This document shows positions 4,782-26,079 of a stretch of DNA of 64,000 nt, in pieces (the stretch's first letter is position 1; every line of letters starts with the position of its first letter). The position numbers were made by a program, and so were the translations under genes. The DNA is from an uncultured Christensenella sp. (GTDB lineage: Bacteria > Bacillota > Clostridia > Christensenellales > UBA1242). The stretch spans positions 64,295-128,294 of the forward strand of contig CATKZB010000002.1 in the NCBI GenBank assembly GCA_949841595.1. The letters run 5' to 3'. The notes beneath the pieces are model-generated. The model was not told the origin of the DNA. It ran no database searches and was given only the letters and a program-made list of their open reading frames with translations.

Positions 4782-4785
4782 TTTG

Positions 4786-5531: not shown

Positions 5532-8500
5532 CTAGTTTATTTGCTGCCCAGCAACAAAGTTTCCACCTGAGTTGATGTTTTCTCCACTCGTCCAAATAAC
5601 TTTTTGATAGTTTTCCACACTGCCACTACTTATCCAATAAAACCAAACCACTGATGGTATATACATTCTATCATGTTTAGAAATAACAGTTTGTTCTGAA
5701 TAATAAACTTTTTCAGTTGAAGAATAGGTAGTCTCTTTTTCGAAAGCATTGCCTACTCTTGAAATCCAGTGCTTTTTTAAAATATCATCATAGTTCATAG
5801 CTGTATAGTTGTTAAATTCATAGTATCCTTCAGCTTCTGTTCTATTATTGAAAATTTTCAAATTTCGTGCCATTCCAAATGCAATATTATTTCCATTTTG
5901 GACTCTCCAGTTACCCATAGATATTCCCTTTGAGCCTTCTCCAGTATTTAAGATGACTTTTGGTTTAAGCATCATCAATCCGTTCGGAAGCCTAACTTCC
6001 TCAAACCCATTCTCTGTTTTGTTTGCAAGCGAACCTGCTTTTCCAGATGAATAATAAGTGTTACCGACAATCCTTCCAAAACCACCAATTCCGGAATTTC
6101 CATTAAAGTTTTTAATAGTTCCCTTACTTCCATTAATAGCTAAACCAGTAACACCTGTCGAAGTTCCATTAGAGCCAGTTTGTCCAGCTCTTCCAGCTCC
6201 ACCTCCACCAAGAACAGTGTTGTTATTAAAGCATCCATTTTCACCATTGCCACCATAACCACCAACACCAGCAGTTCCAATTCTTACAATGCCTGAGAAG
6301 GCGCTATTTACTTCTATATTTCCACCATTGCCACCAACTTTAGCATCATCGCCATTATGGTTATCGGCTCTTAATTTCCCATTTGTTCCATTGGCACCGT
6401 TGCCTGCAACAATCAAATTTTTGCTTATATAACTATTTTCATTATTATCTGGGAGTTTTACTTCACCACAATCTTTAATAGTAACATTTACATCAACATT
6501 ATTGGTTGTTCCATCCAAGCCATTGATAGCAACAAAGCTCTTAATCTTATCACCTGAAACTTTAACACCAAAATCTACATATCCTGACATTTGATTATTC
6601 ACATTTCTTATATTACCGAAAAGCGAAATATTATTTATGCTTGCACTGCTTGATTTGCACAATAATGAATTTTCTCCAGATTCCTTTAAGTTTTCCATAG
6701 AAACAATTCCAACAAGGTTCAAATTTTCAATATATTTATTATTTTCACCAAACAAAGATATTCCGTTTGAATTTGAATTGCTTTGATACTTAATGACATG
6801 ATTTTCTGCTAGCAATATTTTATCGTTTGAAGAAAAATTAAATTCTTCAATATAGCAATCTCCTGACAATATCACAACATTAGCATCAAATATTTCTTCC
6901 GAACTTTCTGTGAAAACTGATTTTTCTTTTGTGATGTCTTTTGAAATTGCATATCTGTATTGAACATTGTTTTCTCCCAAGTTCAATCCATCAACAACAA
7001 ATACATCATTTTCTTTTGTTGCTGAAATCCATTCTCCCCCATTTAGACTATACTCAAAGCTATTTTCTACAAAAGTTCCACCATCAAGTTTGTCACTCAC
7101 AGAAATTGTATTGTTCGTTTCATTAAATAAAGTCATATTTTCTGAAGGAGCAACGTAAATCTCAGGATCACCAGTTTTTGTTATTTCAACAGAAAACTCT
7201 CCTATCTCATTTCTTATAAAAGTTATGTGATTTTCGTTGAAATCTCCAACAATTAAATCAATATTTAGTTTTTCAGAACCATTTTGCCAAGTAACTTCCC
7301 AAACTGTATATTTCTCTTCTCCAATTACTGCTCCTGCTTCATCTTTAATTGGAACAGTTTTTTCAACTTGTTTTTTAGAATAGTTAATTCCGTTCAATAA
7401 AGAGAAGTCAATATTTTCTTCTGCCTCAACACTGGAGTAATCATATCCTGATTCACCTTTATTCAACTTAAACATTTTGTTATTTGTAAAATCAAAAACA
7501 TATCTTATTGAATTTCCTTCAACTTCAAATTCAACACCCACTGCTCCGGTTTCATAAACTCTGTAATCAAAAGCATAATTGAATGTGTGATTTTCGTTTT
7601 TATCAACAATTCTAGATTCCATTCTTGTTGAAACATAATTTCTACCACTAATCAAATCAATTAATCTAGACAAATTTTCATTTGTTGAACTTTCTGCTAT
7701 AACTTCTTCTGTTGTTTTTGTGAAAGTATAATATTTCGAATCGTTTTCATCTGCCAATAAGTCATTACTTAACATTGACACAGCTTGCAAGTTATTACTA
7801 TCATCTCGTTGCTCTTGTAATTGAAATCTTTCATTATCATTCAAAATGTTTTTAAGATTATATGAAACAGAAATAGATTTGTCTTTAGCATTTTCTATAT
7901 TTTCAATAACTTTAACAGTCTCATCTTTCTCCAAACACCCTTGAATATAATTTACAACTGATTCACCTGTCAAAACTTTGATCTCATATCCAAAGTCTTT
8001 CAATGCTGTAATTTCAACTTTAGAAAGTTTGTAGACATAAGATACTTTCATCTCAACAAACTCAATACCAAAGAAAGTTTTTGTAACTTTTTCAATATAT
8101 TCTTCATTGCCTACATTTGCGTTTTCAAAATCTTCGCCAGTATAATTTCCTCCAGTATTAAAATCTCCTTGATTCTGCAATTCTCTTTCGATAACAAAAG
8201 ATAAATCATTTCTTCCTATGCTATCCGTTCTTGATGTTGAAATGCTTCCAGAATAACTATTCTCAGAATTTTTACGCAGATACAAATCTTGTGCACCAAC
8301 AAAACCAGCCAACCGAATTTCATCATCACCTGTCCATTCTGCATTTTGATTGATTTTTTCTTCCGTTACCCCGTCTACTTCGACCAAATCTGCCTTAACA
8401 ATATATAAATAATTAACGCCCGTATCTTCATCTTTATCAACATAAACTTTATAATTATCCAGCATATTATCTGCTGATGTCCAAGCATTTTTAGCAAAGC

Positions 8501-11500
8501 CGAAACTATAATTTGAAGAGCCAAATGCAACCTTTCCAGCTGATTCCAAAGTTGAAAGAGAAACTCTTTTTCCGTATACATCATTAGTTTCATTCTTAAC
8601 ATCTTCAAATCCACTTAACTTGTTTGAAAGAATTGTTTTTTCATAACCATTAAAAGGTATTACACTTGAAACAACATCTTCAATTTCAGCTAAATTTAAT
8701 TCTTCTGTTTTGTTAGTTTCACCAATTATGGTGCTTGTATTCTCAACAACTGTGGTCGTTGTTGTCAATGTGAATGATAATATTCCAGCTAAATCCTCTA
8801 TCGACTCTAAATCTTTATTAAATAAATAAGCACAATTATTTTCTAACTTAAAGGAATCTTCATTTGAATTTGAGAAAAATCCTAATTCCCAACTATCTAA
8901 TAAAACATCACCTACTCTTGCAGACCAGCTATATTTTATCTCTTTGTTACCTTCAGTTCTTCCATTTTTTATATCTTCAACTTGGGTAGAACTAATAAAT
9001 TCATTATTGTTATTTTTCAGTAAAATATAAACACCTTTATGTTCTTCATCAACACTTCCATCTTCTTTCTGTCCAGAATAATAGATTACATTTTGTCTTT
9101 TCAATGTAATTTCTTGTGGAGTTGTTGAATATGTAAATGTAACAGTAATATCTGCATTTTCCACCTTTTCGGCGAAATATAAATCTATAGTCGCCTCAGT
9201 TCCATTGATTTTAACACTATAATATTGAGGGTTAACTGACCTTCCACCAACTTTCACTTCTTTAACAACAATGTCATTTTTTGTAATTTTTGACACATCT
9301 ATATTATTTCCTGTTAATGAAACAGTAACTGTTGCATGATGTGGCGCATAAACAGTTTTCAACCCCTCACCAGACGGCACAATCACAACATTAATTCCAT
9401 TGACAAAAATTTTCTTTAATGTTTCTTTAGAACTATCTCTTTTCTTGTCAATCTCAGATATTTTTTCACTAATATCATCCAAAATTGAATTTGTTGTATT
9501 TTCAACAACCTGTTGTTTAGCTAAATCAAACCCAACAAGTCCAAAATAGTATCCTTCTTCATCATGCACAAGTGCATCGTAACCCACAAATTCAGTAGAT
9601 GCTGTATATGTTGATGTTCCAGAAAGTGAAAAATCCATTTCAGAATAACCAGATGTTTTCCCATTTAAGCCTGTTTGTGTATCATCACTTTCTTGGCTCA
9701 ATTTATTTCCATTTTTATTATAAATTGCACTATATCTATTATAATTTTTGTTCCAATCATTTGATTCATAAGTTGTTTGAATTTCATTTATATTCCCAGA
9801 CCCATTTGGATTTCCATATGTTCTTGTAATGGTGTCAGTCATATATATTCTTTGACTCAAGCCATAAGAATCTAATCCATTGGTTTTAATTTTGGTATCA
9901 GCATCAAATTGTCCATAGAAAGGCAATTTTTTTCCATCGTTATCGTTATCGAGAATATTCTTTCTATTCAGTGTAATTTCTTGAGTATCAACAAATTCAC
10001 CCATATTTCCATCATTTTTGATGTTTCTTATTGATGTTGAATTACTTTCAAAACTATTATTGCCCCGACCGGCATAACCAATTCCATAGGCATAAACTTG
10101 TCTGAATTTATCTTTATTATATGTGGAAGTTACTTCATAAGTAATATCAAAAGGATCGTTAGTCCATTCTTGGTGGTTATATCCATTTGAAATTATTTTA
10201 AGTTCACTTATCTCTTGCGTTATGTTGTTATCCACCACTTTATTTATTGCTTGCACTGCGCCATCATTGATACAAGAAGATACTTCCACTCCATTTCCAT
10301 AGCCAAAGATACCTCCAGCCAATGAGTAATTTGTGCTTGAATAATTCCCAGCACCCACAAAACCAGTGTTATAACTTTCTGTTATTTCAGAATTTTGAGC
10401 ATAGCCCACAACACCACCAGCAAGATAAGGAACAGATTTTGTTGTTATATAACCACTCAGCACAGCATTTGCATTGTAAGAATTTGAAACGGTAACACCT
10501 TCAGCATATCCCACAAGTCCACCAACGATGTTATCTATAGAAGGACTATCTATATCATTATTTGACTTTTTATATCGTTTAATAGACAGAAGTTTATCGT
10601 TAATTTCAATTTGCTTGTTATTTTCTGCTTTATTGATTATCATTCCACTGTTTGAAGAATAACTCAAAGAAACATTGTCAGTAGAGTTTTCTGCATTTCC
10701 TTCAGCAGTTGTTGTTTCTGGCTTAGCAGGTTTAGCTTTATGCATATAGCCTACAACGCCACCTGTTATCACTCCACTTGTGCTTGTGGTTATATTGACA
10801 ACAGCGTCAATTCCAGATGCGTTTCCAATCAATTCACCAACAACACCACCAACATTTATAATAGTATTTTTGTTGGCACTCAACTCTCCAACAACAGTGA
10901 TATTCGAGATGTTTCCAGTGACTTGTCTAGCCAACAGACCAACATTAGTAAATCCACTTTTTGCAGTCACATTAACATTTGTCAATCTTAAGTTTTCAAT
11001 GTCTCCCACAACATTATTAAACAAGCCAACTGCTTGATTTGGTTCTCCATTTTCATTTTTAATATTTCCAAAATCCAAAGTGTTTCCTTGTCCATCAAAA
11101 TAGATATTTTCATTGATATTTTCCAATACACTTGAATTCACTTCAAAGCCATATCTCAAAACAAACTTATAATTTGCTGTTCGAGTTTCTTTGTTCATTT
11201 GATACAATTTGCCAACATTAAGAACAGCCAAATACCACTCATCATTTTTGTCAGCTTTATTTGTTGAACCAGTCTTATCATTGTTTATTGTGTATGCATA
11301 AGAAATCGCAGAATACTTATACTTTCCGTCTTTATATTCAACAGATTCACCTTCAGCATTTGTAGCTTTAAGTGCTTCACGTGTGTAAGTTGTGACATTT
11401 TTCAAATACCCAAATCCATGAGTTGCATAACCATTGTTTGTGTATGGAGAGAAATACCAAGTTGAATAACCAGCTGAGTAACTTCCATTATTAGTTTTAT

Positions 11501-14500
11501 CAGCAGCATAAATTGATTTTCTTCTTTCTTTTAAGCCAGAATATTTAACCGAAACATCCACTATATCTTTACAATCAAGATCCTCTTTTTTATCTTTATT
11601 TTCTTCTGTTACAAAATTCTTAGGAACATCATATGATCCATTATAAACATTTGCAATTCTGCTAATATTTTCTGAAATAAAATGATTATTTGTTTTCTCA
11701 GAAACTGCAGATGCTGAAGAATTTGTTATATTAAATCTTCTGATTTGTGTGTTTGAATAACAATCAACAATGCTTGAATTTTCCCCTATTGCTTGAGCAA
11801 AAGTATAAACTTGATTATCTGAATAAGTTGTGATCATTCCAGACGAGTAGGTGTTTTTAATTGTTGCATTATTCTCTTTTAAGTTTGCAATTCCTGAAAC
11901 AAAACCATTTGCAGTTCCACGATAAGAAATTTCTGCATCGACATAACATTCGTCAATGAAGCCATATTCCAACATTCCAGCAATTCCACCAAGTCTCACA
12001 TCTCCAGTGTTTCCAACAGAAAGATCACCTTTCACGCCCACAGCATAGATGAAAGAGTTTCCCGTTACATTTCCGGCAACACCACCGTAACCATATCCAG
12101 AGTCCATATCAGCCATAACATCTAGATCCACAAGAAGGCTTGTTATCGCATTAAAGTTTGGAATATTTTCTTCTGATGGCTTAGTTGTAGCTGTATTAAA
12201 TTGTGTTCCCATGGAATTTACAATTGCACCAGCACGTGCCGTATAATCCGTCTTAACATCTTTTCTTGTCAAAGTGTGTCCATTGCCAACAAAAACAGTG
12301 TTTGTGAAATTGTCAGCAATAGGATTTTCTGTAGTTATATCTTCAGTAAGTGAAATCCATTTTATGTTATTGAAATTTCCAGTGATGTCAACTTTATTTT
12401 CTCCATCATCCAATGATTTGTCTGCATCTTTTGATGCCCAAGCATAAGGTTTAAGTTTATGACCTTCTGCAAAGCTGTTTAATGTCACATATTTCCCAGC
12501 ATGAGACAAGATATCTCCACCCATTGGAAGAGAAACAGATGTTTGATCTTCTCCTTTGTCAACAATTGAAGTGTAACCCAAGAAATCAGTTCGGTTTTCA
12601 TTATAACCCAAATCTTGATTGCCAGTCTGCTCTTGATAAGCTAGACAAACGCCAGAAGAATAATAGTTGCTTTCATACTTCACAGCGTCAGCATTTCTTC
12701 CGACAATTGCTCCAACTTGTCCAATGCTTTCCATTTCATTTGGAAGTCTGTTATTGAAGTTTGTCATCATAGAGACGCAGTTGTTTACATTGATGTAAGC
12801 ACCCACGCCTACAATTCCACCAAAACTATATTGGTCAAGTTTTTGATTAATATAAACTCCAGTCTTATCATCTCCCTTATATGGCAAATAATTTACAAAC
12901 ACATCTCCATAAGCAAAGCTGTTTGAAATTGAATATGCTCTTGTAGTTTCAGATGGTTCTGTTGCTCCATTAATATCAAATTCACCAACAATTCCACCGA
13001 CTGAAATTTTTCCAAGGCTATCTTTGTCGCCAAAAGATTTAAGTGCCCCACCATAAACAACATTTGAAATGTTAATGCGCTTGCTTGAGTCAGTGTAATC
13101 TTTTCTTCCAACAAATCCTATTGCACCACCAAACTTAAGCGACTTAACATCACTCAAAACGATGCCTGTGACATTGACTCCTGCCAAATTGCTAGACAAA
13201 TTTGCTGTTTGTGTATTGTCTGAAGCTTCAGAGAAGCCAGCCACTTGTCCAATAACTCCACCAAGATAAGCATTGTCACCTTTGACAGCAATATTCAAAG
13301 TGTTTTGACTGTTAGTTGCGTTAATTGCAAATGTGCCAGTTGTTTTTCCAATCATTCCACCAACTGAAACAGTTTTCATTGGTTCTGTAACAGGATTAGC
13401 TTTTGCAGTGGCAGTTGAATCTGTGCCCACTTGAACATCAATAACTCCTGAAATGTCACAAGCACCAGAAACAGAAACACCACCAGAAACACTTCCAAAC
13501 AATCCACCCAATGCATTGTCAGAACCACTGGAAATTGTGTAAGGACTTAAAGCATAACTATAACTATTTTCATCAAAGATGTTGACAATTTTTCCATCGA
13601 CTTCTTTTGTATATGAATGTTCCAAATTATTATTCTCTTCGAGTTTTCCAACTTTCAAATCTACAGAAACATTTCTCACAGAAGCACTCGAACTCAATTC
13701 ACCTGCAATTCCACCAATCTTAGCTTCTTCTGTTGAAGCCTTGGAAGCTTGATAAATTTTTCCAAAAAGTTTTTTAGCTTTTGAATTTGTTGTTGAAAAG
13801 TAAGAACTTTCCATTTTTCCGAAAACCAAGCCAGCTCTCAACTTTTTCAAAGAAGAGTTTTGTGAAATCAAAATCCCATCTTCTTTGTCAGTTTCGTTTT
13901 CTTTGAATGAGAAATCCATGCTATCAACAGAGTTGACAGCCCCAACATATCCTCCAACATTAACTTCATTGCCTTTGCTAACTCCCAAATCAATTTCAAC
14001 ATTGTTTAGTGTTGCCATTGACATAGAAATTCTTGCTGGAGTTCCACTGCCTTTCAAAATCGCACCTGCATAAAGTCCGACATTCATTGTGTTGTAATTG
14101 CTGTTCTCCTTAGATGAAAACTTGACAATGATTTTGTCAGCAGAATTATCTGTCGCCTCACGAACTAAATCGAGATTTTGCACACTGATTGATGTGTAAC
14201 CACTTTCTTGTCTGACATAACCAGCCAAGATTCCCATATACACATTTGCATTCACATTGCTTTCTGTGTAATTCAATTGCAACGAAGCGTTTTCTCTTAA
14301 AACAACATCGGTATCTATCAATGATGTTGAATATGCATATGCAGAAATTAAACCTGCAGAATGCGCCGTTTCAGCATTTCTTGTGCTTAATTTTGTGTTG
14401 AGAACAGTTTCTTTGTTGAGAACAATTTTGGTTTTTCTGAAGGTTGCAAGATTTGTGTAACTCTCAACAATTCCTTCAAAGCCATCTCTTTCTTGATTGA

Positions 14501-17500: not shown

Positions 17501-20500
17501 CAAATGACGCACTGATATATCCAGTCGATTCGTTTGCAATAACAAAACCAGCAACTTCAACTTGCCCATCAATGACAAATTTTCCAAGCGTTTGAGAACT
17601 AATGTAATTAACACCTGCAATATCAACAATGTGTTTGAAATCAGTTCCACCAACACGGCTGTTCATAACAGAAGAATTGTTTGTTATCACAAAACCAGCG
17701 ATTGAGCTTTCAATTCCCATTGCAGAAGTAAGTTCAATTGGGTCTGAATTAGAACCTTTTGTATATTTAACAACCAATCCATTATCACCCGATACAGTAT
17801 GTTTTTGATAACTCGAATCATAGTATGAAACCACTTCACAGTTGTAAATAACTCCATTATTTGTTATTGCAAAGCCTGCAACATTGATGTCTTTATATTG
17901 ATCAATATTTGCTGTGATTTGTCCACCATTATAAACATTCACTCTCACATTTTTAAGTGTTGTATCAGCACTCACCGTGTTAAACAAAGCCAAATTCAAT
18001 GCACTTCCTGTTGGCATTGCAAAGCTGTTTAAATGAATTGTAAAGCCGTTTCCATCCAAACTTTTAATCAAATCCGTGTCAATTGGTGTGTAATCTTCAA
18101 GCACAATGTCATTCATCAAAATGTAATCGTCTGGTTCAACAGATTTCGTTGTCAAATCAATGAATTCTTGTGCAGAAGAAATCTGAGTTGGAGTCTCTTC
18201 ATCTGACCATATCTCAACTGCAATCAAGAAATAATAATCATAAACAAATTCAATTCCTTGATATACCACTGTTGTTTGCAATTTCATTAATTGAACACCA
18301 CTGCGTTTTCCAGTTATTGTCAAACAGCCTGCATATTGACCAACCTCATGTTCATCAAAGTCGAACAAATCATTAGTAAGGAATGTCTGATAATTTTCGT
18401 TGTAGATTGCAGTCGAATTGCTTTCACTTGCAGCATACCAAAGTTGTTGTTTCAATGAAAGTTCATGATATCTTCCGTCGTTTTCATTTAATCTATAGTT
18501 GATATAATATCCAACTTCATCATCTTTGTAATTATTTTTCAATGCAAATTGATTTCTCTTTGCCATCAATTGTTCAACTGCTTCCACTTCACTTAAGTTG
18601 TTTGAATCATAAACATAATTTTCTGGATTCATTGAATAATTGAAGTTGAGAATTGAAGTTTCATTTAAATATGAATAATAAACATCATAAGTCTTTCCAT
18701 TATAAGTTCTTGTTGCGCCACTTCCTCTAACTGATGTTTCGTTGGCATTTATTGAGAAATCCACCAAGCACAATGTTGCACGGCTAACTTTAATTTCCTG
18801 AACATTATTTAAAGTTCTTTCCACAGAAGCACAAACATAGAAAATTCCACTAGATTTTCCACCATCCAATGTTGCATCAACATAAGCTGTTATGTTTGCT
18901 GTGTAAACTTTGTAATTGTTGAAAATTTCAACTGTTGCTGTCGAAAGAGAAATGTTTGCTCCGTTATTTTGCAAATAAAGTTCATAAAGATTTTGGTCAA
19001 GTGACAAAGTCACTGTGACTTCTGCAGTTTCCCCTTTTGAAAGCACATATGTTGACGACCCATTTACTTTTATGTTGGCTTCTTGCAAATAATCAACAGC
19101 CAAATTATGTGTTCCTGAAATAAGAATTTCCTCTCCATCATAATATGTCAAAGTTAATTTCAAACCACTTGTTGAAGTAAATGCACTTGAAATGTAAAGT
19201 CTGAAATAGAACACTCCTGTTCCAGTTCTATCATTTTCTGTAAGATTGACTCTGATTCCATTTTCAATCAAAGAAGTTGAAGCTGGGTTCACAAAATAAC
19301 CAAAGCTTGAATTGTAAGACAATCTTGAAAGATTTACAGTTCCAACATTTCCTGTCCCCGTTGTCGAATAAGTCAAAGTGAAGTGAGTCATTTTTGCATA
19401 AGCTGGACTAACAGTAACTGCAACAACAGCATCTGATGAAGGTGCTAATGTGTTTGTGATCTCATCCGAAGGATTGATATAAAGCACTGAATTTCTGATC
19501 TGTCTGTTTGCAACATTATAAGTTGAAATGCTTATATCTTCAACATCTTGCGTTTCAACATAAATTCCAATAATTTTTTGATATATTTGATTGCTTATTT
19601 GACTTAAAGCATTAACCGACAAAACTAAATTGTCATAATTCTTATCCAAAAGATGTTTTTGACTATCTTTAATTTTTACCAAAACATTAAAGCGATAATC
19701 TTTTTCTCCCAAAAATTTCTTTGTCCAAGAAACTTCCAAAGTAAGTTTGCTGTCAACAACAAAACTTATGTTATTTGCACCAACAACATCAAATGGCAAA
19801 TCAATTTCACCATATTTAAGTCCAAAAACAAGATCATCTTCAACATTGTCTGTTGTCATTGACACATCAAAAACAGCATATTGAGAAGGTTTAACAACCA
19901 AATTGTTTGCATTGTTAATTGCAAGAGCTGTTGCACCATTATACACTGAAACATCAAAGTTACGTGCAAACTGATTTTTGATTGCATCTGCAAAGACTTG
20001 ATTTTCAATGCTTAGAGCTGAAACAAAAGTTTCTAATTTTGTGACAGCATTGTTGTTGTGGCTGTTTTTGCCTTGAACAACAAGCGAATTGTTGCTTCTT
20101 GAAACTGCAATATAATTGTTTCCTTCAACATTTGTGTTGTCAGCCAAGTTAAATCCGATGGTATAATCATCTCTTTCCAATGCATATGGCACAACATTGT
20201 TTCCAAGGAAAACAGAGTTGTTGAAATTGTAAGTTACATTTCTTGACTTTCCAGACTGAATTAAAATAATTTGATTATCTTTCAATTCAACACCATTTAA
20301 AGTTGTGGAAAGTTTTGGCAAACGATTCAGCACAATGAAACTAAAAGTTTTGAATTCTGTAAAATTCATTTTTGAATGCACTTTAATGTCAAAAACTTCA
20401 GTTGTTTTGCTTAATATTTTTATTGAATTGGCAGAAATCGAAATTGACTTACTGTCACTTGTCAAAAGCAAGCTTCTTGCTTCTTTTGGTTGAATTCCAA

Positions 20501-23500
20501 ACAATTCTGCAACAGAGATGGTGTTCAAAGAATCCAAATTAGCTTTTTCAACAGCATCAGAAACATTTGTTTGAGTTTTATAAACAAACAAAACACCTTT
20601 ATCTTGATCTACTTTCAATGATTTAAGTGGATCAAGGTTGTCATTAACCTCAACACTTGATAAATCAACAGAAGCACTTTGGACAGTGTTTTTCAAATAC
20701 ATAAATCCAAAATTGTTTTTCACTTCAATGTTTTCTGTTTCCCAAATTGAGTTATTTAAACTTGAAATCAAATTTTGCCATTTTTGGCTTCCATTTTGAT
20801 TTGTTGAATTTGGAATATCTTCACTTCTAAGCAAATCTGCATCAGAAATTTGACCTCCAAAATAAACATCATTTACAAATGCAAATTGAGCATTTTTGAA
20901 AATTCTTGTTCGGATTTCTCCGTTCAAGTAATATGTCATATAGCAGTTTTCAAAAATTGCCAATGTGTTGTTTGTGCTTGAATTCAAAGGAGAATTTAAA
21001 TCCCCAACAAAACCAAAACTCTCAACAAATCTTGCACCATCGGCATGGCTTCCTGCAAAAACACCTTTCGCAAAGTTGCCATTTGAGATAACTGTTTCAC
21101 AATTTGAATCTTCGTTGGTCAAAGAATATGCATAAACATATGTTCTTTCAACAACACTGCTTGCACCAGTAAAACCTACGATTCCTCCAACAGTTCCACC
21201 GGCAATAATTTTGTTGCTATATTTATTTCCATCTTGAGCTGCAAAATTATAGAACTCAAAACCTGATTCTGAAATTTTTCCAAAGTTTTGTCCAACAATT
21301 CCTCCAACAAAAGACGCATGTTCTGCATTTATGGACGCACCATAAATTTTTACATTCTCAATTTGTCCATTATTTATTCCAGCCACAGCACCAACGGCTG
21401 AAGTTGCATCAGAATATATTTCACTGCTCTTATATTCGCCGTCTTTGTAATAAACATCAACAGCACAGTTTGATATTAAGCCATTGTTTGTGTTGGCAAC
21501 AAAACCTCCAGCGAGACCATTAACAGAATTTGCTTGTCCTGCAAAAATCAAGTCTTTCACAGTTCCGTTCAATTGATTGACAAAGTTTTCGCTGTTATTT
21601 TCAAATGTCAAAGCGATTGATTCATCTTTACCGAAAATCATTCCACTGAAAGTGTCATAAGCTTTCCAATTGTTGAATGTGACATTGTTCATGATTTTAT
21701 AGTATTTTGCAAAGTCAATTTGTTCCAAATCACCTTGATTATAAACTCTAATAGCTGTACCTTCGCTACTTCCATCTGCAATTGTAACTAAAATTCTTAA
21801 GATGATGTCTTTATAATAAATCTTTTCTCCGTCATTATTTAAGAAATAATTTGAAATGCTTTCACTTCCATTGATAATTTCATCAAATCTTGCATTCCAC
21901 TCGGCATTTGACAACCTAATGTAAATCGGTGTCTCAATTGTCTTTCCAAATTCGTCAACATCATATTTATACACCAAAACCTGTCTAACACCATCAACCA
22001 TTTTGATCATATCTTTTGGCAACAAATATAAATAACCATAACCTCCTTTAGATGTGTTTATGCTAAGGTTGAAAGTTTGTCCAACTTGAGAAGTTGTTAT
22101 CGACAAATCATTTGAAGATCCATCAATTGCAAAGTAAGAATAATCAAGTCCCAAATCGTTTGCTTCACTTGGCATAACAGAAGTTGAAATTGTGAAATTT
22201 CTTTCACTAGACACAGATGTCGTCAAATTGAGATAAATTTCATTATCCAAAGTCTTGTTCAGCCATTCAACACTTTCCACTCTTCTGACATTTCTGATTT
22301 CAATTTGAATTTCAGTTTCTCTTTTTATTCCATTTTCGTCCAAATATGTCACAGACAGAATATCTCTAACAGAAGTTTGAAGATTGGTAGAATTTGCTGT
22401 TATTCTGAATTTCAAAAATCTTCCTTGATTTGCAAAAGACAAATCACTTAATGTGTAAAAACTGTTTTTCAATGTTGTTCCATCTTCTGAAGCATAAACA
22501 AAATCTTCTATGGCAGACTCAAAAGTGAAATTGGTCAAGATATTTGAATATGTTGGAACTTTTTCATCCGGTCTCATTGAAATTGTCACATCAATTCTTG
22601 ATTTGTTGATGTCACTAACACTCAAAGTTTCTGTTGTGTAGAGCAATGTTGTTTGTACATTTGAAGAGAGATATCTTGTTGAATAAAAACTTTCCAAAGC
22701 AAAGAATCTTGCAACTGTGATATTTTCGTGTTGTTCATTGAATCCACCAAACAAAACACAAACATAGCCTTTGAAAGCATTGTCAGTCAATGTCAAACGA
22801 GAATCTGTAAGTCTAAACAAGCTGTTATCTAGATTTTCAAAATAACGATAATATTCTGCAATCACAGTCAAATTATTTTCAGAATAAATTTGATTTGCAA
22901 TTCTGACAGCTTCTTGAGTATCTGTTATTCCATTTGTTATTTTGATCGCAGACACAAAATTTTCAAAAGAAAGATATCTGTAAACAACCCCCGTTTCAGA
23001 AAGAGTTGCATTTTGATAATCAGTGCTTAAAGGCAAACTTGTTCCTGCTTCCATCATCAATTTTGATAAAGACAAACTTTGTCTGTTTTCATCTGAAAGG
23101 ATTAATCCATCTTTGTTTACAAAAGTTTGCAAACTAGATTCATCTTTAAATACATCTGCTGAAGATTTGTCAGAATTTTGAATGCTTACAGATTGCATAG
23201 GAGCAAAAGCTTGAATTTCATATTCTTGTGATTTCTTTCCTGTCACATGTTCAAACCAAAATTTGGTGCTATCTGAAAAATTTGCACCATTTAAAGTTAC
23301 ACTAAATTTTGCAACAACAAAGTTTTCCCCTTCAAAATTTGATGAGACAAAAGCAAGTTCAGAAAAATCAAATCTTTGGTTGTCACTTGACACAAGATTC
23401 AAACCTGATAATGTGGTCATATCCTTGATCTTAACCACAAATTCCAAATTGCGAGCAGCTGTTATATTTGAAGACATATATGTAATTTTTGGTAAATCAT

Positions 23501-25073
23501 CGTCGTCAACAGTTGAAATGCTTAAATTTTCTGCAGTTGAGATTTTGTATAAGTTTAAGTTAAGAGTTGTGACAGCATTTGCACTGCTCATTGAAACAAA
23601 ATTGATTTCAACGCCTTCCAAAGAGTCAAATCTGTTTGAACTAGAAAGATAAACATCTGTTCCACTTTGAATGCTGTCAGAAACATAAACACTCGAGCCT
23701 TGTTCACTTGGTCTAAAAACAACTTCTTGTCCACGACAATAAATTTTTAAGACATCTTCAACTCCTGACAAATTCAAGTTTCTCAAATTTGACTGATTCA
23801 AATCTACTGAAACAAAAAACATATTGTTGTCAATAGAAACATCTTCTGGTCCAACCACAGTGCTAACTTTAAAACCATTTCCAACTGCGTAGTCAGAGAA
23901 GACATCAATTTGTGCGTTGTTTAAACTGTTTTTGTTTTCGTCATACAAATCAACACGGGTTGCTGAATAGGCTGTTTTAATCAAAATTTCAACTTCATCA
24001 CTGAAAATATCATAAATGAAATCATGATAAGAAACTTTGAAATAAAAATACAAATCACCAAATTTAAGCAAATTTGCAGTGTCAAGTGATTCAATCACAA
24101 AATTGTAAGATCTTCTGTTTTCATTCTGTGAATTTGAAGTTATGTCTAAATTAAAATATTGTTCATATTCATTGCGATCAAGAAATCTTCTTGTTCCATC
24201 GCTAAGTTTTTCATAGACCTCAACATCCAAATCAATTTGGTAAGGTGTGTTAACAACAAGCACACCACTCACACTTGATCTGTTTGCATCATTTCTTTTG
24301 AGTTCAAAAACAACTTGTTTCGTTGCAGGAGTGTCATTTTGATACAACACCATATCTTCAATAGTCAAATTATTGATAGTCGAATTTTCAATAACATCAA
24401 AAGTTACTGAATCATGAATGCTTGCATTTCTTGAAAAACTTGCTCTAAGTTGAAGTTTGAACATATCAAAATTTTCATAAACATAAAGTGTTTGATTTTC
24501 AATTTTTGCTGCAAGTTGATCATTTCTCAAAAATTCTTGATTTCCAGTTTCCTCAAAAGACCAAACAACATCTCGCACATTTGCAGTGATTGGAGAGAAT
24601 TCAAAGTAATCCTCAAAACTAAGTTCTTTTGAACTTCCCTTAACAACAAACAAATCACTTCTTGCATCTTGATTGTCACCAGTTTTTTTGCTTATGCTTT
24701 CAACAACAGTCTTAACTGAAACAGAGATTATTTTGCTTTGCTTTATATCTTCAACAGCAGAAACTTTAACTTCTGCATCTCCACTTTTATTTCCAAAAAT
24801 TGTAAATGAAAAATTTCCTTCGCCTTTTTTTCTTACATCAGAATATGTAACACAATCTTCTCCTTTAAGAACTTCCACAACAATTCCAGCGTTGGAGTTT
24901 TCAAGGAAGACATCAATCTCTTTTTGTTGATAGTTTTCTTCTTGTTCATCATTCGTGAAAATAACCACTTCTTCCGTTGAAACAGAAAGTGAAATTTTCT
25001 TTTCACATGCCGACAGCAGAACCCCACCCAGAATCATAAACACACTCAAAATTCCAAGAGCAAATTTCTTCAT
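5532..25073 (-). CDS. giant surface lipoprotein, 6,513 aa, with Ig-like N-terminal domains and multiple GLUG-motif beta-helix modules
   Basis: Single uninterrupted ORF in the track. AGGAGG - 5 nt - ATG 25073. Signal peptide with lipobox LLSAC. Many GG(I/L/V)(V/I/F)G turns and recurring DGNGFTI-type module entries. No LPXTG motif and no C-terminal TM. Confidence 0.9.
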   Translation of the reverse strand: MKKFALGILSVFMILGGVLLSACEKKISLSVSTEEVVIFTNDEQEENYQQKEIDVFLENSNAGIVVEVLKGEDCVTYSDVRKKGEGNFSFTIFGNKSGDAEVKVSAVEDIKQSKIISVSVKTVVESISKKTGDNQDARSDLFVVKGSSKELSFEDYFEFSPITANVRDVVWSFEETGNQEFLRNDQLAAKIENQTLYVYENFDMFKLQLRASFSRNASIHDSVTFDVIENSTINNLTIEDMVLYQNDTPATKQVVFELKRNDANRSSVSGVLVVNTPYQIDLDVEVYEKLSDGTRRFLDRNEYEQYFNLDITSNSQNENRRSYNFVIESLDTANLLKFGDLYFYFKVSYHDFIYDIFSDEVEILIKTAYSATRVDLYDENKNSLNNAQIDVFSDYAVGNGFKVSTVVGPEDVSIDNNMFFVSVDLNQSNLRNLNLSGVEDVLKIYCRGQEVVFRPSEQGSSVYVSDSIQSGTDVYLSSSNRFDSLEGVEINFVSMSSANAVTTLNLNLYKISTAENLSISTVDDDDLPKITYMSSNITAARNLEFVVKIKDMTTLSGLNLVSSDNQRFDFSELAFVSSNFEGENFVVAKFSVTLNGANFSDSTKFWFEHVTGKKSQEYEIQAFAPMQSVSIQNSDKSSADVFKDESSLQTFVNKDGLILSDENRQSLSLSKLMMEAGTSLPLSTDYQNATLSETGVVYRYLSFENFVSAIKITNGITDTQEAVRIANQIYSENNLTVIAEYYRYFENLDNSLFRLTDSRLTLTDNAFKGYVCVLFGGFNEQHENITVARFFALESFYSTRYLSSNVQTTLLYTTETLSVSDINKSRIDVTISMRPDEKVPTYSNILTNFTFESAIEDFVYASEDGTTLKNSFYTLSDLSFANQGRFLKFRITANSTNLQTSVRDILSVTYLDENGIKRETEIQIEIRNVRRVESVEWLNKTLDNEIYLNLTTSVSSERNFTISTSVMPSEANDLGLDYSYFAIDGSSNDLSITTSQVGQTFNLSINTSKGGYGYLYLLPKDMIKMVDGVRQVLVYKYDVDEFGKTIETPIYIRLSNAEWNARFDEIINGSESISNYFLNNDGEKIYYKDIILRILVTIADGSSEGTAIRVYNQGDLEQIDFAKYYKIMNNVTFNNWKAYDTFSGMIFGKDESIALTFENNSENFVNQLNGTVKDLIFAGQANSVNGLAGGFVANTNNGLISNCAVDVYYKDGEYKSSEIYSDATSAVGAVAGINNGQIENVKIYGASINAEHASFVGGIVGQNFGKISESGFEFYNFAAQDGNKYSNKIIAGGTVGGIVGFTGASSVVERTYVYAYSLTNEDSNCETVISNGNFAKGVFAGSHADGARFVESFGFVGDLNSPLNSSTNNTLAIFENCYMTYYLNGEIRTRIFKNAQFAFVNDVYFGGQISDADLLRSEDIPNSTNQNGSQKWQNLISSLNNSIWETENIEVKNNFGFMYLKNTVQSASVDLSSVEVNDNLDPLKSLKVDQDKGVLFVYKTQTNVSDAVEKANLDSLNTISVAELFGIQPKEARSLLLTSDSKSISISANSIKILSKTTEVFDIKVHSKMNFTEFKTFSFIVLNRLPKLSTTLNGVELKDNQIILIQSGKSRNVTYNFNNSVFLGNNVVPYALERDDYTIGFNLADNTNVEGNNYIAVSRSNNSLVVQGKNSHNNNAVTKLETFVSALSIENQVFADAIKNQFARNFDVSVYNGATALAINNANNLVVKPSQYAVFDVSMTTDNVEDDLVFGLKYGEIDLPFDVVGANNISFVVDSKLTLEVSWTKKFLGEKDYRFNVLVKIKDSQKHLLDKNYDNLVLSVNALSQISNQIYQKIIGIYVETQDVEDISISTYNVANRQIRNSVLYINPSDEITNTLAPSSDAVVAVTVSPAYAKMTHFTLTYSTTGTGNVGTVNLSRLSYNSSFGYFVNPASTSLIENGIRVNLTENDRTGTGVFYFRLYISSAFTSTSGLKLTLTYYDGEEILISGTHNLAVDYLQEANIKVNGSSTYVLSKGETAEVTVTLSLDQNLYELYLQNNGANISLSTATVEIFNNYKVYTANITAYVDATLDGGKSSGIFYVCASVERTLNNVQEIKVSRATLCLVDFSINANETSVRGSGATRTYNGKTYDVYYSYLNETSILNFNYSMNPENYVYDSNNLSEVEAVEQLMAKRNQFALKNNYKDDEVGYYINYRLNENDGRYHELSLKQQLWYAASESNSTAIYNENYQTFLTNDLFDFDEHEVGQYAGCLTITGKRSGVQLMKLQTTVVYQGIEFVYDYYFLIAVEIWSDEETPTQISSAQEFIDLTTKSVEPDDYILMNDIVLEDYTPIDTDLIKSLDGNGFTIHLNSFAMPTGSALNLALFNTVSADTTLKNVRVNVYNGGQITANIDQYKDINVAGFAITNNGVIYNCEVVSYYDSSYQKHTVSGDNGLVVKYTKGSNSDPIELTSAMGIESSIAGFVITNNSSVMNSRVGGTDFKHIVDIAGVNYISSQTLGKFVIDGQVEVAGFVIANESTGYISASFAKNVQIYNRMNSNVSLTSGFVLRNSNNIQNSFVEGMRSNDDEEVYNNLSNISSLGVVSGFVYENSKLVKNSYSNIAIENKALKSSMVAGFVYINREGAEVSLCFSACEILKTDINQMHFSGVDDFANSLNYGEISVSYFYNETRVDDTNQSKVTKGALAIHEIKQDTLYGFSFASSEDSYDGIWMMTSHGISLVSANQIALSNRYAVTNGRITSLFYNRNILNVDNMAMVDLSYGGENNPIIIRNARDFAMATGKATTNEISSYKVYYNDKKVFGNYRFVNNVDMSEIDQNSENDNSVKLTTTEKTFEGLIDGNGFTISNINLGSSKQLENYGLFAKLDGAVIMNLDFIVDSVHNAQANIVGTLAGTAIDTRILAVTLSPVSSETNTDNTAVHGNNIVGGVVGMLFGESRLSDITVKDIDIYSSYYSNSKDIYSNSQKVGNKLRQVADDRVSLSSLISTLSYAGAVAGYVDVYDDLNSEYVKYSTTLQVSDYNIVTVHVSDAVNIYGEVAGGLFGYVGNSTLIYDANIKLDADMSLSKPSYITSKNLYAGGLIGENYGGLFAVSASYTDELQQAIERSENTYYNGTLSTEKGQQSIFSYTNQDAGFATNTNDPMFVGGLVGYMGGGYIYIGYNKLNVISHSDKTKAVGGIIGLAGYSEDKFDLTFLTKTPKVNILLNDVYASGDVYVDGKIGVAGGIVGAVEKNENNMSAVALKNVMATNYYTYDGAKLAGDKAVLNDNSYLSDRHFMLVGDIYSKAGEVNGLISDLLLIDSDDNYFNVRTSEKVGGDTSSLTVGGYNQVKVGDVSLKLNPFGFDKENATYYDVNNARLLLAENIGSKSMSTPEAAYARMYSYFLANGWSEEFWSHEQNNLFPEIELLPKLNVLYWDAFNTEEVLKAMKNSGLTVVLRGKVNNSENDFNYTDIDLTNFPETDELKTTIEGFRGHLVSYADYMYTDTEGNVTIGQEKENGGSVGDRVGIILNKPLFSTLEPGAEVEGITFYINQERDGFEGIVESYTNLATFRKTKIVLNKETVLNTKLSTRNAETAHSAGLISAYAYSTSLIDTDVVLRENASLQLNYTESNVNANVYMGILAGYVRQESGYTSISVQNLDLVREATDNSADKIIVKFSSKENSNYNTMNVGLYAGAILKGSGTPARISMSMATLNNVEIDLGVSKGNEVNVGGYVGAVNSVDSMDFSFKENETDKEDGILISQNSSLKKLRAGLVFGKMESSYFSTTNSKAKKLFGKIYQASKASTEEAKIGGIAGELSSSASVRNVSVDLKVGKLEENNNLEHSYTKEVDGKIVNIFDENSYSYALSPYTISSGSDNALGGLFGSVSGGVSVSGACDISGVIDVQVGTDSTATAKANPVTEPMKTVSVGGMIGKTTGTFAINATNSQNTLNIAVKGDNAYLGGVIGQVAGFSEASDNTQTANLSSNLAGVNVTGIVLSDVKSLKFGGAIGFVGRKDYTDSSKRINISNVVYGGALKSFGDKDSLGKISVGGIVGEFDINGATEPSETTRAYSISNSFAYGDVFVNYLPYKGDDKTGVYINQKLDQYSFGGIVGVGAYINVNNCVSMMTNFNNRLPNEMESIGQVGAIVGRNADAVKYESNYYSSGVCLAYQEQTGNQDLGYNENRTDFLGYTSIVDKGEDQTSVSLPMGGDILSHAGKYVTLNSFAEGHKLKPYAWASKDADKSLDDGENKVDITGNFNNIKWISLTEDITTENPIADNFTNTVFVGNGHTLTRKDVKTDYTARAGAIVNSMGTQFNTATTKPSEENIPNFNAITSLLVDLDVMADMDSGYGYGGVAGNVTGNSFIYAVGVKGDLSVGNTGDVRLGGIAGMLEYGFIDECYVDAEISYRGTANGFVSGIANLKENNATIKNTYSSGMITTYSDNQVYTFAQAIGENSSIVDCYSNTQIRRFNITNSSASAVSEKTNNHFISENISRIANVYNGSYDVPKNFVTEENKDKKEDLDCKDIVDVSVKYSGLKERRKSIYAADKTNNGSYSAGYSTWYFSPYTNNGYATHGFGYLKNVTTYTREALKATNAEGESVEYKDGKYKYSAISYAYTINNDKTGSTNKADKNDEWYLAVLNVGKLYQMNKETRTANYKFVLRYGFEVNSSVLENINENIYFDGQGNTLDFGNIKNENGEPNQAVGLFNNVVGDIENLRLTNVNVTAKSGFTNVGLLARQVTGNISNITVVGELSANKNTIINVGGVVGELIGNASGIDAVVNITTSTSGVITGGVVGYMHKAKPAKPETTTAEGNAENSTDNVSLSYSSNSGMIINKAENNKQIEINDKLLSIKRYKKSNNDIDSPSIDNIVGGLVGYAEGVTVSNSYNANAVLSGYITTKSVPYLAGGVVGYAQNSEITESYNTGFVGAGNYSSTNYSLAGGIFGYGNGVEVSSCINDGAVQAINKVVDNNITQEISELKIISNGYNHQEWTNDPFDITYEVTSTYNKDKFRQVYAYGIGYAGRGNNSFESNSTSIRNIKNDGNMGEFVDTQEITLNRKNILDNDNDGKKLPFYGQFDADTKIKTNGLDSYGLSQRIYMTDTITRTYGNPNGSGNINEIQTTYESNDWNKNYNRYSAIYNKNGNKLSQESDDTQTGLNGKTSGYSEMDFSLSGTSTYTASTEFVGYDALVHDEEGYYFGLVGFDLAKQQVVENTTNSILDDISEKISEIDKKRDSSKETLKKIFVNGINVVIVPSGEGLKTVYAPHHATVTVSLTGNNIDVSKITKNDIVVKEVKVGGRSVNPQYYSVKINGTEATIDLYFAEKVENADITVTFTYSTTPQEITLKRQNVIYYSGQKEDGSVDEEHKGVYILLKNNNNEFISSTQVEDIKNGRTEGNKEIKYSWSARVGDVLLDSWELGFFSNSNEDSFKLENNCAYLFNKDLESIEDLAGILSFTLTTTTTVVENTSTIIGETNKTEELNLAEIEDVVSSVIPFNGYEKTILSNKLSGFEDVKNETNDVYGKRVSLSTLESAGKVAFGSSNYSFGFAKNAWTSADNMLDNYKVYVDKDEDTGVNYLYIVKADLVEVDGVTEEKINQNAEWTGDDEIRLAGFVGAQDLYLRKNSENSYSGSISTSRTDSIGRNDLSFVIERELQNQGDFNTGGNYTGEDFENANVGNEEYIEKVTKTFFGIEFVEMKVSYVYKLSKVEITALKDFGYEIKVLTGESVVNYIQGCLEKDETVKVIENIENAKDKSISVSYNLKNILNDNERFQLQEQRDDSNNLQAVSMLSNDLLADENDSKYYTFTKTTEEVIAESSTNENLSRLIDLISGRNYVSTRMESRIVDKNENHTFNYAFDYRVYETGAVGVEFEVEGNSIRYVFDFTNNKMFKLNKGESGYDYSSVEAEENIDFSLLNGINYSKKQVEKTVPIKDEAGAVIGEEKYTVWEVTWQNGSEKLNIDLIVGDFNENHITFIRNEIGEFSVEITKTGDPEIYVAPSENMTLFNETNNTISVSDKLDGGTFVENSFEYSLNGGEWISATKENDVFVVDGLNLGENNVQYRYAISKDITKEKSVFTESSEEIFDANVVILSGDCYIEEFNFSSNDKILLAENHVIKYQSNSNSNGISLFGENNKYIENLNLVGIVSMENLKESGENSLLCKSSSASINNISLFGNIRNVNNQMSGYVDFGVKVSGDKIKSFVAINGLDGTTNNVDVNVTIKDCGEVKLPDNNENSYISKNLIVAGNGANGTNGKLRADNHNGDDAKVGGNGGNIEVNSAFSGIVRIGTAGVGGYGGNGENGCFNNNTVLGGGGAGRAGQTGSNGTSTGVTGLAINGSKGTIKNFNGNSGIGGFGRIVGNTYYSSGKAGSLANKTENGFEEVRLPNGLMMLKPKVILNTGEGSKGISMGNWRVQNGNNIAFGMARNLKIFNNRTEAEGYYEFNNYTAMNYDDILKKHWISRVGNAFEKETTYSSTEKVYYSEQTVISKHDRMYIPSVVWFYWISSGSVENYQKVIWTSGENINSGGNFVAGQQIN

Positions 25074-25092
25074 TGTGTCCTCCTAAAATAAT

Positions 25093-25109
25093 ATTTGCAA
25101 TATGCAAAT
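25093..25109 (-). promoter_or_regulatory. perfect 7-3-7 palindrome in the predicted 5' leader of the giant gene (operator or 5' stem-loop)
   Basis: ATTTGCA-ATA-TGCAAAT, between the predicted -10 and the SD. Confidence 0.4.
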
Positions 25110-26014: not shown

Positions 26015-26079
26015 ATCAACCTCCATGCGTTAATATTAGCATAAATCGATAAAGAAAATCAACTTATTTTAAGAACAAA

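Follow-up and report, generated by a model that had tools for sequence, protein, structure and literature searches.

What kind of protein is encoded by an open reading frame (ORF) of 19.5 kb, and what could so large a product be for? The frame lies on the minus strand of the stretch of DNA analysed here, 64 kb of contig CATKZB010000002.1 (positions 64,295 to 128,294), which is called the window throughout, and is referred to below as the giant gene. It was found to be one intact gene for a predicted lipoprotein composed of serial right-handed beta-helix modules that are homologous to the non-catalytic beta-helix of IgA1 proteases. The gene belongs to a large, clade-specific and syntenic family, in which the middle of the protein is conserved and its distal end evolves fast. 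With moderate confidence, the product is read here as an attachment fibre with a variable tip. The coordinates of all features are given in Table 1.

The giant gene and its lipid anchor

Read from the window sequence, 5532..25073 on the minus strand is one intact ORF of 6,513 codons with an ATG start, occupying 30.5% of the window. A preliminary description of this DNA had reported a single uninterrupted frame filling 30% of the window, a strong start and a lipoprotein signal, and all three were found as described. The start reads AGGAGG-ACACA-ATG, with a spacing of 5 nt. Judged by its residues (MKKFALGILSVFMILGGVLLSAC), the N-terminal segment has all the marks of a classical lipoprotein signal and contains the motif [LVI][ASTVI][GAS]C, and Cys23 of the lipobox was invariant in 35 of 35 sequences, that is the window protein and the 34 complete orthologs presented below. 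The mature protein was computed to have 6,491 aa, a mass of 714 kDa and a pI of 4.65. Neither lgt nor lspA is present within the window.

The predicted N-terminal lipid is also the only visible anchor, as the preliminary description had held. The giant protein contains no LPXTG-type motif, and by Pfam no SLH, CWB2 or choline-binding domain. A second hydrophobic segment was absent, the maximum 19-aa Kyte-Doolittle value outside the signal peptide being 1.43 (cut-off 1.6). Anchoring by sortase, SLH or CWB2 was rejected since there is no LPXTG, no C-terminal transmembrane (TM) segment and no matching Pfam domain.

Independent contigs from the same species were 99.9-100% identical to the window across both flanks and over the last 276 aa of the protein, and the within-species check of intactness thus covers the gene ends only. 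All of these contigs break, either at 6363, which is approximately 830 nt into the giant gene, or at 25199-25241. The contigs that end in this way, at the borders of the gene or inside it (loci L001-L006 and L089-L093; GCA_948504575.1, ERR3199641, SRR32965978 and others), are short-read assemblies, and low coverage, strain variation or AT-rich flanks could be responsible for the breaks.

No tandem repeats were detected in the giant gene by Tandem Repeats Finder, and the DNA-level repeats within it were solely stretches of about 30 nt coding for GGVVG turns. As self-BLAST was also almost blank, a recent tandem duplication was rejected, in agreement with the earlier view that the modules are not recent copies of one another.

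Module architecture

Plain self-BLAST and phmmer searches with tiles were too weak for the definition of modules, and ortholog-based hhalign was needed. For this, 240-aa profile tiles from a full-length alignment of 35 ortholog sequences were compared all against all (1,378 comparisons). The resulting profile self dot-plot displayed six homologous modules, here numbered M1 to M6, with E-values from 1.5e-13 to about 1e-5. At least six modules had been proposed from the sequence alone, and the six found by profile comparison begin at the entries then proposed. All six entry peptides were present, at aa 1142, 2339, 2835, 3463, 4262 and 4659, which is 7-14 nt from the positions originally assigned to them. 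The long runs of glycine turns that had been noticed were equally evident: GG[ILVFM][ILVFMA]G was counted 21 times against an expectation of 0.34 (maximum 3 in 500 shuffles), and all 21 turns fall inside M1 or M3-M6. In M2 the turns are AGF(V/A) in place of GGxxG.

A probable seventh module, M7, was encountered at aa ~6053. Its entry at aa ~6053-6155 matched M6 with an E-value of 4.5e-5 and M2 with 1e-4, which is borderline given 1,378 comparisons, and it carries the module entry pattern ..ILL.E.H.I......G.SLFG....I.NL.LVG. The assignment of M7 as a seventh beta-helix module is suggestive rather than certain.

The modules add up to approximately 3,090 residues, and the other ~3,400 residues match no recognisable family. 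The latter comprise the N-terminal 1,060 aa, the inter-module region L1, short linkers, the hypervariable distal region L6 and the C-terminal tail. Profiles of the N-terminal, L1 and C-terminal parts gave just Ika designed proteins (E 0.02) and the ADAM17 propeptide (E 0.04) when compared with the PDB; both were taken as chance matches and rejected as relatives. When the orthologs were scanned one by one against Pfam, their N-terminal, distal and C-terminal parts gave no more than scattered single matches.

The Ig-like character ascribed to the first ~1,000 aa in the preliminary description was not confirmed beyond weak hints. Pfam matches to Big_2 occurred in just 2 of 35 orthologs (E 1.3e-3) and to Big_12 in one, and a Big_2-like pattern, G.A.I.V...I.V.V, was seen in the consensus of the first domain. 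The profile of the N-terminal region had no meaningful match among PDB sequences. By these patterns, aa 24-1083 are probably tandem beta-sandwich or Ig-like domains making up a wall-proximal stalk.

Beta-helix fold and homology to IgA1 proteases

An AlphaFold2 (AF2) model of aa 2300-3400 was built with ten sequences and had a mean predicted local distance difference test score (pLDDT) of 66.5. Within it, tile residues 1-420 and 530-930 reached a pLDDT of 80-95 and displayed the short periodic strands of a beta-solenoid, bearing out in these helix cores the beta-helix that had been expected for the modules. A Foldseek search of the PDB with this model identified right-handed parallel beta-helices. 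The probability was 1.00 for the IgA1 proteases 6xja, 7uvl, 7jgj, 6xjb and 7uvk from S. pneumoniae and Gemella. Other structural neighbours were a PL6 alginate lyase (E 7e-4), the tailspikes of HK620 and P22, pectate lyases, Ag43 and the hemopexin-binding protein HxuA. The viral library of Foldseek gave a similar picture, which included a phage 'putative IgA1 protease' (probability 1.00).

The relation to IgA1 proteases was also found at the level of sequence profiles. The ortholog profile of M5-M6 matched 6xja_P in the PDB with an E-value of 1.1e-18, over chain residues 96-349, which correspond to the beta-helix of the N-terminal domain. The same profile matched 7uvl_P (E 3e-18) and 7uvk_A (E 3.5e-12). 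GLUG (PF07581) was detected in the M5-M6 tile of 27 of 35 orthologs at E<=1 (best E 7.4e-12) and in the M1 tile of 12 of 31 orthologs at E<=0.01 (best E 9.2e-9), and Peptidase_M26_N (PF05342) in six orthologs (best E 1.5e-6). Tiles of the window protein itself scored 9.1 and 17.1 bits (E 0.007) for GLUG, below the gathering cutoff of 20.5, and the GLUG assignment therefore rests on the orthologs, through homology. Of the original proposal of a GLUG-type, IgA-protease-like beta-helix, the fold and the kinship hold through the orthologs and the structural matches, whereas the window protein by itself stays under the GLUG cutoff. In the IgA1 proteases the beta-helix is non-catalytic; it binds the Fab of the substrate IgA1 and gates the active site (PMC7695701).

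A syntenic protein family and its host lineage

Orthologs were sought by scanning one genome per GTDB species with a profile of aa 2300-3400. Of the 153 relatives that this returned, the analysis kept the 80 best loci. In 34 of these 80 loci, all from species-level metagenome-assembled genomes (MAGs), a complete ortholog was contained in the fetched DNA. Each of the 34 is a single ORF of 5,807-6,727 aa with a lipobox signal peptide at its start, and each is syntenic, with the radC-uvrB side and the spoIIID side conserved. The giant gene is a single-copy gene at this position across the clade.

An exhaustive hidden Markov model (HMM) search of a database of 1.84 billion cluster representatives gave 8,216 matches at E<=1e-3 and 770 at E<=1e-30. 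Most of the best 150 representatives measured 5,500-7,700 aa, their conserved core lying at about residues 2,000-3,300, and more than 100 database representatives were full-length. A word-indexed protein search returned 9 matches for the core and 1 for the C-terminus, against the hundreds from the genome scan and the HMM search; that it found just nine fragments is probably due to the contig breaks together with the word-index filter. Source names of the family members that were checked were absent or read 'hypothetical protein'. Searches of Pfam, NCBIfam and PDB sequences gave no significant match to the giant protein of the window, and no Pfam annotation was recorded for the nine indexed homologs.

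Two loci depart from the single-ORF pattern. In the syntenic contig L008 (3675-15469) the ortholog is called as two ORFs of 2,109 and 1,822 aa with a 4-nt overlap, which is either a sequencing-error frameshift or a real split. Scaffold L007 contains large ORFs in a row (2,239, 1,363, 1,027 and >2,740 aa), one of them with a faint GLUG match; they could be the pieces of a single ortholog or else several paralogs.

The ortholog loci originate from animal and human gut MAGs. Among the closest orthologs, L009, whose core tile is 61% identical, bears the label Ca. Caccovivens sp. and is the closest named relative; Caccovivens is the GTDB genus UBA11517 of family UBA1242, order Christensenellales (PMC8035907). 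Going by the ortholog labels and the shared synteny, the host lineage, one of uncultured gut Clostridia, is probably UBA1242, a genome-reduced family. The genomes of UBA1242 are 0.67-1.6 Mb in size, mostly <1 Mb, and are without amino-acid, nucleotide and lipid synthesis, part of glycolysis, the ATP synthase and standard transporters; the members are predicted obligate symbionts or parasites, and the retention of sporulation genes among them was called unexpected (PMC12306168). At these genome sizes the giant gene was computed to make up 1.2-2.6% of the genome.

Conservation along the protein and the variable distal end

Conservation was found to be unevenly distributed along the protein. In the 35-sequence alignment, identity to the window protein was 20-35% in the N-terminal 2,200 aa, 35-55% at aa 2300-3200, 16-31% at aa 3300-5000 and 7-17% at aa 5000-6513. 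The maximum lies at aa 2290-3300 and conservation collapses in the C-terminal 1,500 aa. Columns conserved at 90% or more constituted 17.3% of M2 and 11.4% of M3, and 0.1-0.2% of L6 and M7. The closest orthologs displayed 47-62% identity in N-terminal and core tiles and 19-30% in distal tiles. The C-terminus was detectable by phmmer in 1 of ~150 full-length representatives and in one 374-aa fragment, and a Pfam scan of L6 in 30 orthologs revealed no domain.

In M7 of the window protein a glycine-rich block is located at aa ~6190-6330 (GNGANGTNG...GGNGGNIEV...GIVRIGTAGVGGYGGNGENG...GGGGAGRAG). A recurrent C-terminal signature was recognised in family members (NL.IAGDG..G.NG ... GG.GG.I.V...F.GI.RAG.AG.GGYGGNG.NG ... 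GN.GIGGFG), and the 60-aa segment richest in glycine fell within the last 500 aa of the protein in 72 of 120 full-length representatives. The very end of the protein carries the motif KVIWTSGE.INSGG.F (aa 6498-6513; 5535-5582 on the minus strand), which is confined to the subclade of the window, with 8 of 35 orthologs and 19 of 120 representatives carrying it; other subclades end in unrelated sequences. The restriction of the motif to one subclade suggests that tip domains have been exchanged or replaced whole during the evolution of the family. An AF2 model of aa 6040-6513 reached a pLDDT of 44.7 with the Gly-rich part unresolved, and Foldseek found no significant match for this low-confidence model. 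Speculatively, the glycine-rich motifs could pack into a polyglycine-II (PGII) helix sandwich resembling the adhesin tip gp38 of phage S16.

Expression signals

The putative sigma-A-type promoter in front of the giant gene is paralleled in the orthologs, where a promoter with at least 11 of 12 matches was present in 26 of 33 upstream regions compared with 1.9% of shuffles. The conserved form, TTGAC[A/T]-17/18-TATAAT, is located 80-117 nt 5' of the start codon in the orthologs and is kept though the ortholog proteins are just 21-47% identical.

Between the promoter and the start codon, the 5' untranslated region (5'-UTR) contains a candidate hairpin. Directly 5' of the Shine-Dalgarno sequence, a hairpin was observed in most members of two ortholog clades, at the matching position in L010, L011, L021, L075, L043-L046, L053, L055, L056 and L086. 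The arm sequences differ and remain complementary despite the divergence (TTTGCA/TGCAAA, TCTGCA/TGCAGA, ATCTGC/GCAGAT, GTTTAATATTTG/CAGATATTAAAC and TTAATTTCC/GGAAATTTTA). Folding of the hairpin region had z < -1.5 relative to shuffles in 18 of 32 orthologs. RNAalifold found no consensus 5'-UTR fold on a MAFFT alignment, because loop lengths differ and the 5' arms are shifted. The hairpin may be an mRNA-stabilising or regulatory element of the 19.5-kb transcript. Taken together, the sigma-A promoter, the Shine-Dalgarno sequence and the hairpin point to strong vegetative expression of the giant gene and argue against a sporulation-specific gene. From its position, radC is probably co-transcribed with the giant gene.

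Proposed function and alternatives

As an attachment fibre, the protein would be exported by Sec, lipidated at Cys23 and retained on the outer face of the membrane. About seven right-handed beta-helix modules alternating with beta-rich spacers would give a long, largely rigid fibre, by a rough estimate up to ~150-200 nm if fully extended, which would project through and beyond the cell wall. The stalk, above all the M2-M3 core, would be the conserved part and the distal 1,500 aa, including the glycine-rich tip, the fast-evolving part. The variable outer end would then be in contact with a partner cell, host mucus or another surface, and production of the fibre would be constitutive, from the strong vegetative promoter. 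A precedent for binding exists in the IgA1-protease beta-helix, which binds a protein ligand. As the lineage needs metabolites from others, it would most plausibly use this contact to attach itself to partner cells or host material. Tentatively, and with clearly less confidence than we have in an attachment fibre as such, the giant protein could be the principal cell-cell attachment organelle of a genome-reduced, partner-dependent Firmicutes lineage, probably UBA1242, in which the conserved M2-M3 part would serve assembly or contact with the envelope and the variable distal 1,500 aa would set the partner or surface for each species.

Several observations weigh against an attachment fibre. No adhesive, lectin or carbohydrate-binding module (CBM) domain was recognised anywhere in the protein by Pfam and profile searches. 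The best-conserved part is the middle, M2-M3, and not the tip, and could have a conserved role in enzymatic activity or self-assembly; some invariant Asp, Glu and Arg residues are found in M2 and M3. The model of the tip is of low confidence, with a pLDDT of 44.7. The placement in UBA1242 is indirect, derived from ortholog labels and not from genome-level classification.

An alternative that we regard as unlikely is an S-layer-like shield or coat: the protein would be produced in great abundance and cover the cell as a protective or structural layer, and its variable part would serve to evade phages, antibodies or predators instead of binding a ligand. A promoter, Shine-Dalgarno sequence and 5'-UTR hairpin of the kind seen here, with the promoter near consensus, are typical of S-layer genes, and the acidic pI of 4.65, the single syntenic copy across the clade and the hypervariable, presumably exposed regions would suit a coat as well. 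An elongated 714-kDa multi-module beta-helix with one lipid anchor is, however, unlike known lattice-forming S-layer proteins, SLH and CWB2 domains are absent, and the expression level is derived from sequence signals only.

An enzyme tethered to the surface, with M2-M3 acting as a glycan depolymerase or lyase on host mucus, dietary polymers or the envelope of a partner and so opening up nutrients, is improbable too. The PL6 alginate lyase, tailspikes and pectate lyases among the structural neighbours would be in line with such an activity, and so would the invariant residues D2322, D2340, E2413, E2558, D2995, D3049, E3100, R3115 and D3208 in M2/M3, the most conserved modules, and a host lineage that has neither transporters nor biosynthesis and must take metabolites from others. 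The protein has, however, no Pfam, NCBIfam or PDB-sequence match to a catalytic family of glycoside hydrolases, lyases or proteases, and its specific sequence homology is to the non-catalytic beta-helix of IgA1 proteases. The conserved columns are also mostly Gly, Asn and aromatic: 270 columns were at least 90% identical in the 35 sequences, 123 of them Gly and 26 Asn, with the rest mostly aromatic or aliphatic, as expected of structural constraints on a beta-solenoid. An M26 protease in particular was rejected, as HExxH was absent from the window protein and the 34 orthologs, no His was conserved anywhere, and neither the window protein nor the ortholog Pfam scans had a match to the catalytic domain Peptidase_M26_C.

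That the protein is linked to sporulation, for example as a spore-surface or exosporium fibre, is very unlikely. The giant gene is found directly downstream of spoIIID in many genomes, near a spoIIQ-like gene and spoIIT, and UBA1242 unexpectedly keeps sporulation genes. The spoIIQ-spoIIID cluster is, however, widely conserved in Firmicutes independently of the giant gene, and some of the orthologs keep radC as a neighbour without having the spo genes beside them. The gene has a conserved promoter of its own that is of sigma-A type (-35 TTGACA, -10 TATAAT) and not of sigma-E, -K, -F or -G type, and a Sec/lipobox signal directs a protein to the cytoplasmic membrane of the cell in which it is made. 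The spore-surface fibre that the preliminary description had offered as a guess is disfavoured by this promoter and by the lipobox.

A polymorphic toxin or contact-dependent-inhibition-like protein, in which a variable toxin would sit at the C-terminal end of a beta-helical filament, would share the filamentous beta-helix and the highly variable C-terminus, but is most improbable. The variable part spans ~1,500 aa and is not a cassette of ~200 aa, no toxin domain was found in the ortholog Pfam scans, the stop codon is followed at a distance of 11 nt by the conserved radC rather than by an immunity-like gene, and a subclade shares the motif at the extreme C-terminus. Finally, an assembly chimera or decaying pseudogene, as the breaks at or inside the gene in short-read assemblies of the same species and the split ortholog of L008 might suggest, is excluded for practical purposes by intact syntenic ORFs of equal length in 34 independent species, the >100 full-length representatives, the lack of internal DNA repeats able to collapse and the conserved start signals and lipobox.

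Genomic neighbourhood

The conserved gene order around the giant gene is spoIIT, the gene of an M23 peptidase, an acyl carrier protein (ACP) gene and spoIIID on the upstream side, and radC, a small divergent ORF and uvrB on the downstream side. The small ACP gene between the M23 peptidase gene and spoIIID was conserved in 35 loci, and spoIIT, M23, ACP and spoIIID form a compact sporulation cluster in what is probably a genome of <1 Mb. A 180-aa ORF adjoining spoIIT has an N-terminal hydrophobic segment and was conserved in 18 ortholog loci. The other genes of the window are those of an ordinary chromosome (uvrB, radC, mfd, pth, cysS, recD2, a MurJ-like flippase, signal peptidase I and sporulation genes), and the GC content of the window is ~33%. 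Further ORFs of 180-601 aa without a Pfam family are located at 29654-31459 (-), 36155-37261 (+), 41299-42234 (+), 48589-49560 (+) and 27640-28182 (-).

Two of the ortholog loci carry labels from other groups. L032 (CAVCJG010000003.1) is labelled Eggerthellaceae and has the full Clostridia-type synteny with spoIIID, ACP, M23, spoIIT and radC; the label probably reflects a mistake in binning or naming. L073 (CALURS010000002.1), also a locus with a giant ortholog, is labelled Candidatus Gastranaerophilales.

Table 1. Features of the giant gene and its surroundings, with positions in the window.
Feature	Position	Strand	Basis
Predicted terminator hairpin after radC	4759-4784		Sequence
radC, 244-aa gene call, starting ~11 nt after the stop codon of the giant gene	4786..5520	-	radC 3' of the giant gene in 26 loci
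Giant gene, 6,513-aa precursor	5532..25073	-	Sequence; 34 complete syntenic orthologs of 5,807-6,727 aa
C-terminal tail domain, aa 6351-6513, ending KVIWTSGENINSGGNF	5535..6023	-	Motif in 8/35 orthologs and 19/120 representatives
Probable seventh module M7, aa 6053-6350	6024..6917	-	hhalign to M6, E 4.5e-5
Hypervariable distal region L6, aa 5001-6052	6918..10073	-	No domain recognised in the orthologs
Beta-helix module M6, aa 4584-5000	10074..11324	-	Ortholog profile against 6xja_P; window tile GLUG 17.1 bits
Beta-helix module M5, aa 4263-4583	11325..12287	-	hhalign to M2, E 3e-8; GLUG matches in orthologs
Beta-helix module M4, aa 3446-4110, long, with divergent entry	12744..14738	-	hhalign against M3/M6, E 5e-8 to 1e-8
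Beta-helix module M3, aa 2758-3300, second conserved core module	15174..16802	-	AF2, hhalign, conservation
Beta-helix module M2, aa 2290-2757, best-conserved part	16803..18206	-	AF2, Foldseek, conservation
Inter-module region L1, aa 1461-2289, no known domain	18207..20693	-	Pfam and profile searches
Beta-helix module M1, aa 1084-1460	20694..21824	-	hhalign to M2, E 1.5e-13, and to M6, E 6.6e-13
N-terminal region, aa 24-1083, no Pfam family	21825..25004	-	Weak Big_2 hints
Lipoprotein signal peptide MKKFALGILSVFMILGGVLLSAC, lipobox L-S-A-C (LLSAC), Cys23	25005..25073	-	Sequence; lipoboxes in orthologs
Shine-Dalgarno AGGAGG, 5 nt before ATG	25079..25084	-	Sequence; GGAGG conserved in orthologs
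Candidate 5'-UTR hairpin AUUUGCA-UAU-UGCAAAU, just 5' of the Shine-Dalgarno sequence	25093..25109 (approximate)	-	Suggestive only
Putative sigma-A-type promoter TTGACT-18-TATAAT (11/12 match), ~50 nt before ATG	25123..25152	-	Ortholog conservation
Upstream neighbours spoIIID, ACP, M23 peptidase (SpoIIQ-like) and spoIIT	25425..27232	-	Conserved; context, outside the giant gene

Relation to known systems

The module type is shared with the M26 IgA1 proteases (S. pneumoniae ZmpA/IgA1P 6xja, 6xjb and 7jgj; Gemella 7uvk and 7uvl). Common to both are the entry segment ..DG.G..I.nL...LF.., the GGlvG-type rungs that follow it and the right-handed parallel beta-helix. The IgA1 proteases combine one helix with G5 domains, a zinc-protease domain and anchoring by LPXTG. 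The giant protein is 3-5 times larger, lacks a protease domain, contains about seven helices and would be anchored by its N-terminal lipid.

Fibrillar adhesins and beta-helical surface filaments (Ag43 and other autotransporters, TpsA proteins of the HxuA/FHA type, pneumococcal PfbA, and giant Gram-positive adhesins such as Ebh) resemble the giant protein in their length and their beta-helices. In these adhesins the stalk consists of beta-helices and repeated beta-sandwich domains and a variable distal part mediates contact, and Ag43 and HxuA are structural neighbours of the giant protein. The latter differs in its route to the surface, which would be Sec and a lipobox in a monoderm instead of type V secretion, a sortase or a C-terminal TM segment, and it has no sequence similarity to them beyond the generic fold and no known adhesive domain. 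The tailspikes of P22 and HK620 and the PL6 alginate lyases share the right-handed parallel beta-helix fold, but the match is generic, with 6-12% identity, low TM scores and no catalytic motif or family-level sequence match.

Giant proteins of Omnitrophota and large surface proteins of DPANN and CPR are likewise very large, unannotated and beta-rich and take up a sizeable share of a small, partner-dependent genome. Those of Omnitrophota exceed 10,000-85,000 aa and are rich in TM segments, with antiparallel beta-helices as well as dockerin and SecA-like domains; the survey of giant genes that describes them makes no mention of the family reported here, of GLUG or of lipoprotein anchors (bioRxiv 10.1101/2023.11.21.568195). 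The giant protein differs from them in phylum and architecture, and no homology connects them. The family is also absent from the paper on UBA1242 (PMC12306168).

The GLUG/IgA1-protease beta-helix, this type of lipid anchor and giant fibrous surface proteins in general are already known. As far as the searches show, the family itself is new, and so are the occurrence of about seven such helices in one lipoprotein without a protease domain, the strict synteny and near-constant length across the clade, and the weight of such a gene in an apparently minimal genome.

Significance

The family has been nearly invisible to routine annotation: the members whose names were checked have none or are called 'hypothetical', Pfam shows nothing significant for the window protein and has no entry for its nine indexed homologs, and the gene is often fragmented in short-read assemblies. 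Its architecture suggests that the GLUG/IgA-protease beta-helix, beyond its role as an accessory protease domain, can also be the repeating unit from which a fibre is built. The conserved core may be used for antibodies or FISH-like capture (fluorescence in situ hybridisation), the variable tips for tests of specificity, and the gene as a family-wide marker.

UBA1242 is widespread in animal and human guts and has never been cultured. It was recently linked negatively to chicken growth (PMC13155120), and the means by which these bacteria make contact with other cells are not known (PMC12306168). If the window belongs to UBA1242, about 2% of the genome would code for a single 714-kDa surface protein that is conserved and, apparently, expressed at a high level. 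This share of the genome, the predicted location at the surface and the fast-evolving outer end make the protein an obvious candidate for the contact apparatus. If it is indeed the principal attachment organelle of such a lineage, the giant protein would correspond, on the Gram-positive side, to the giant surface proteins known from episymbionts among the CPR, DPANN and Omnitrophota, and would be both a determinant of specificity in the symbiosis and a handle for finding the partners of these bacteria and cultivating them.

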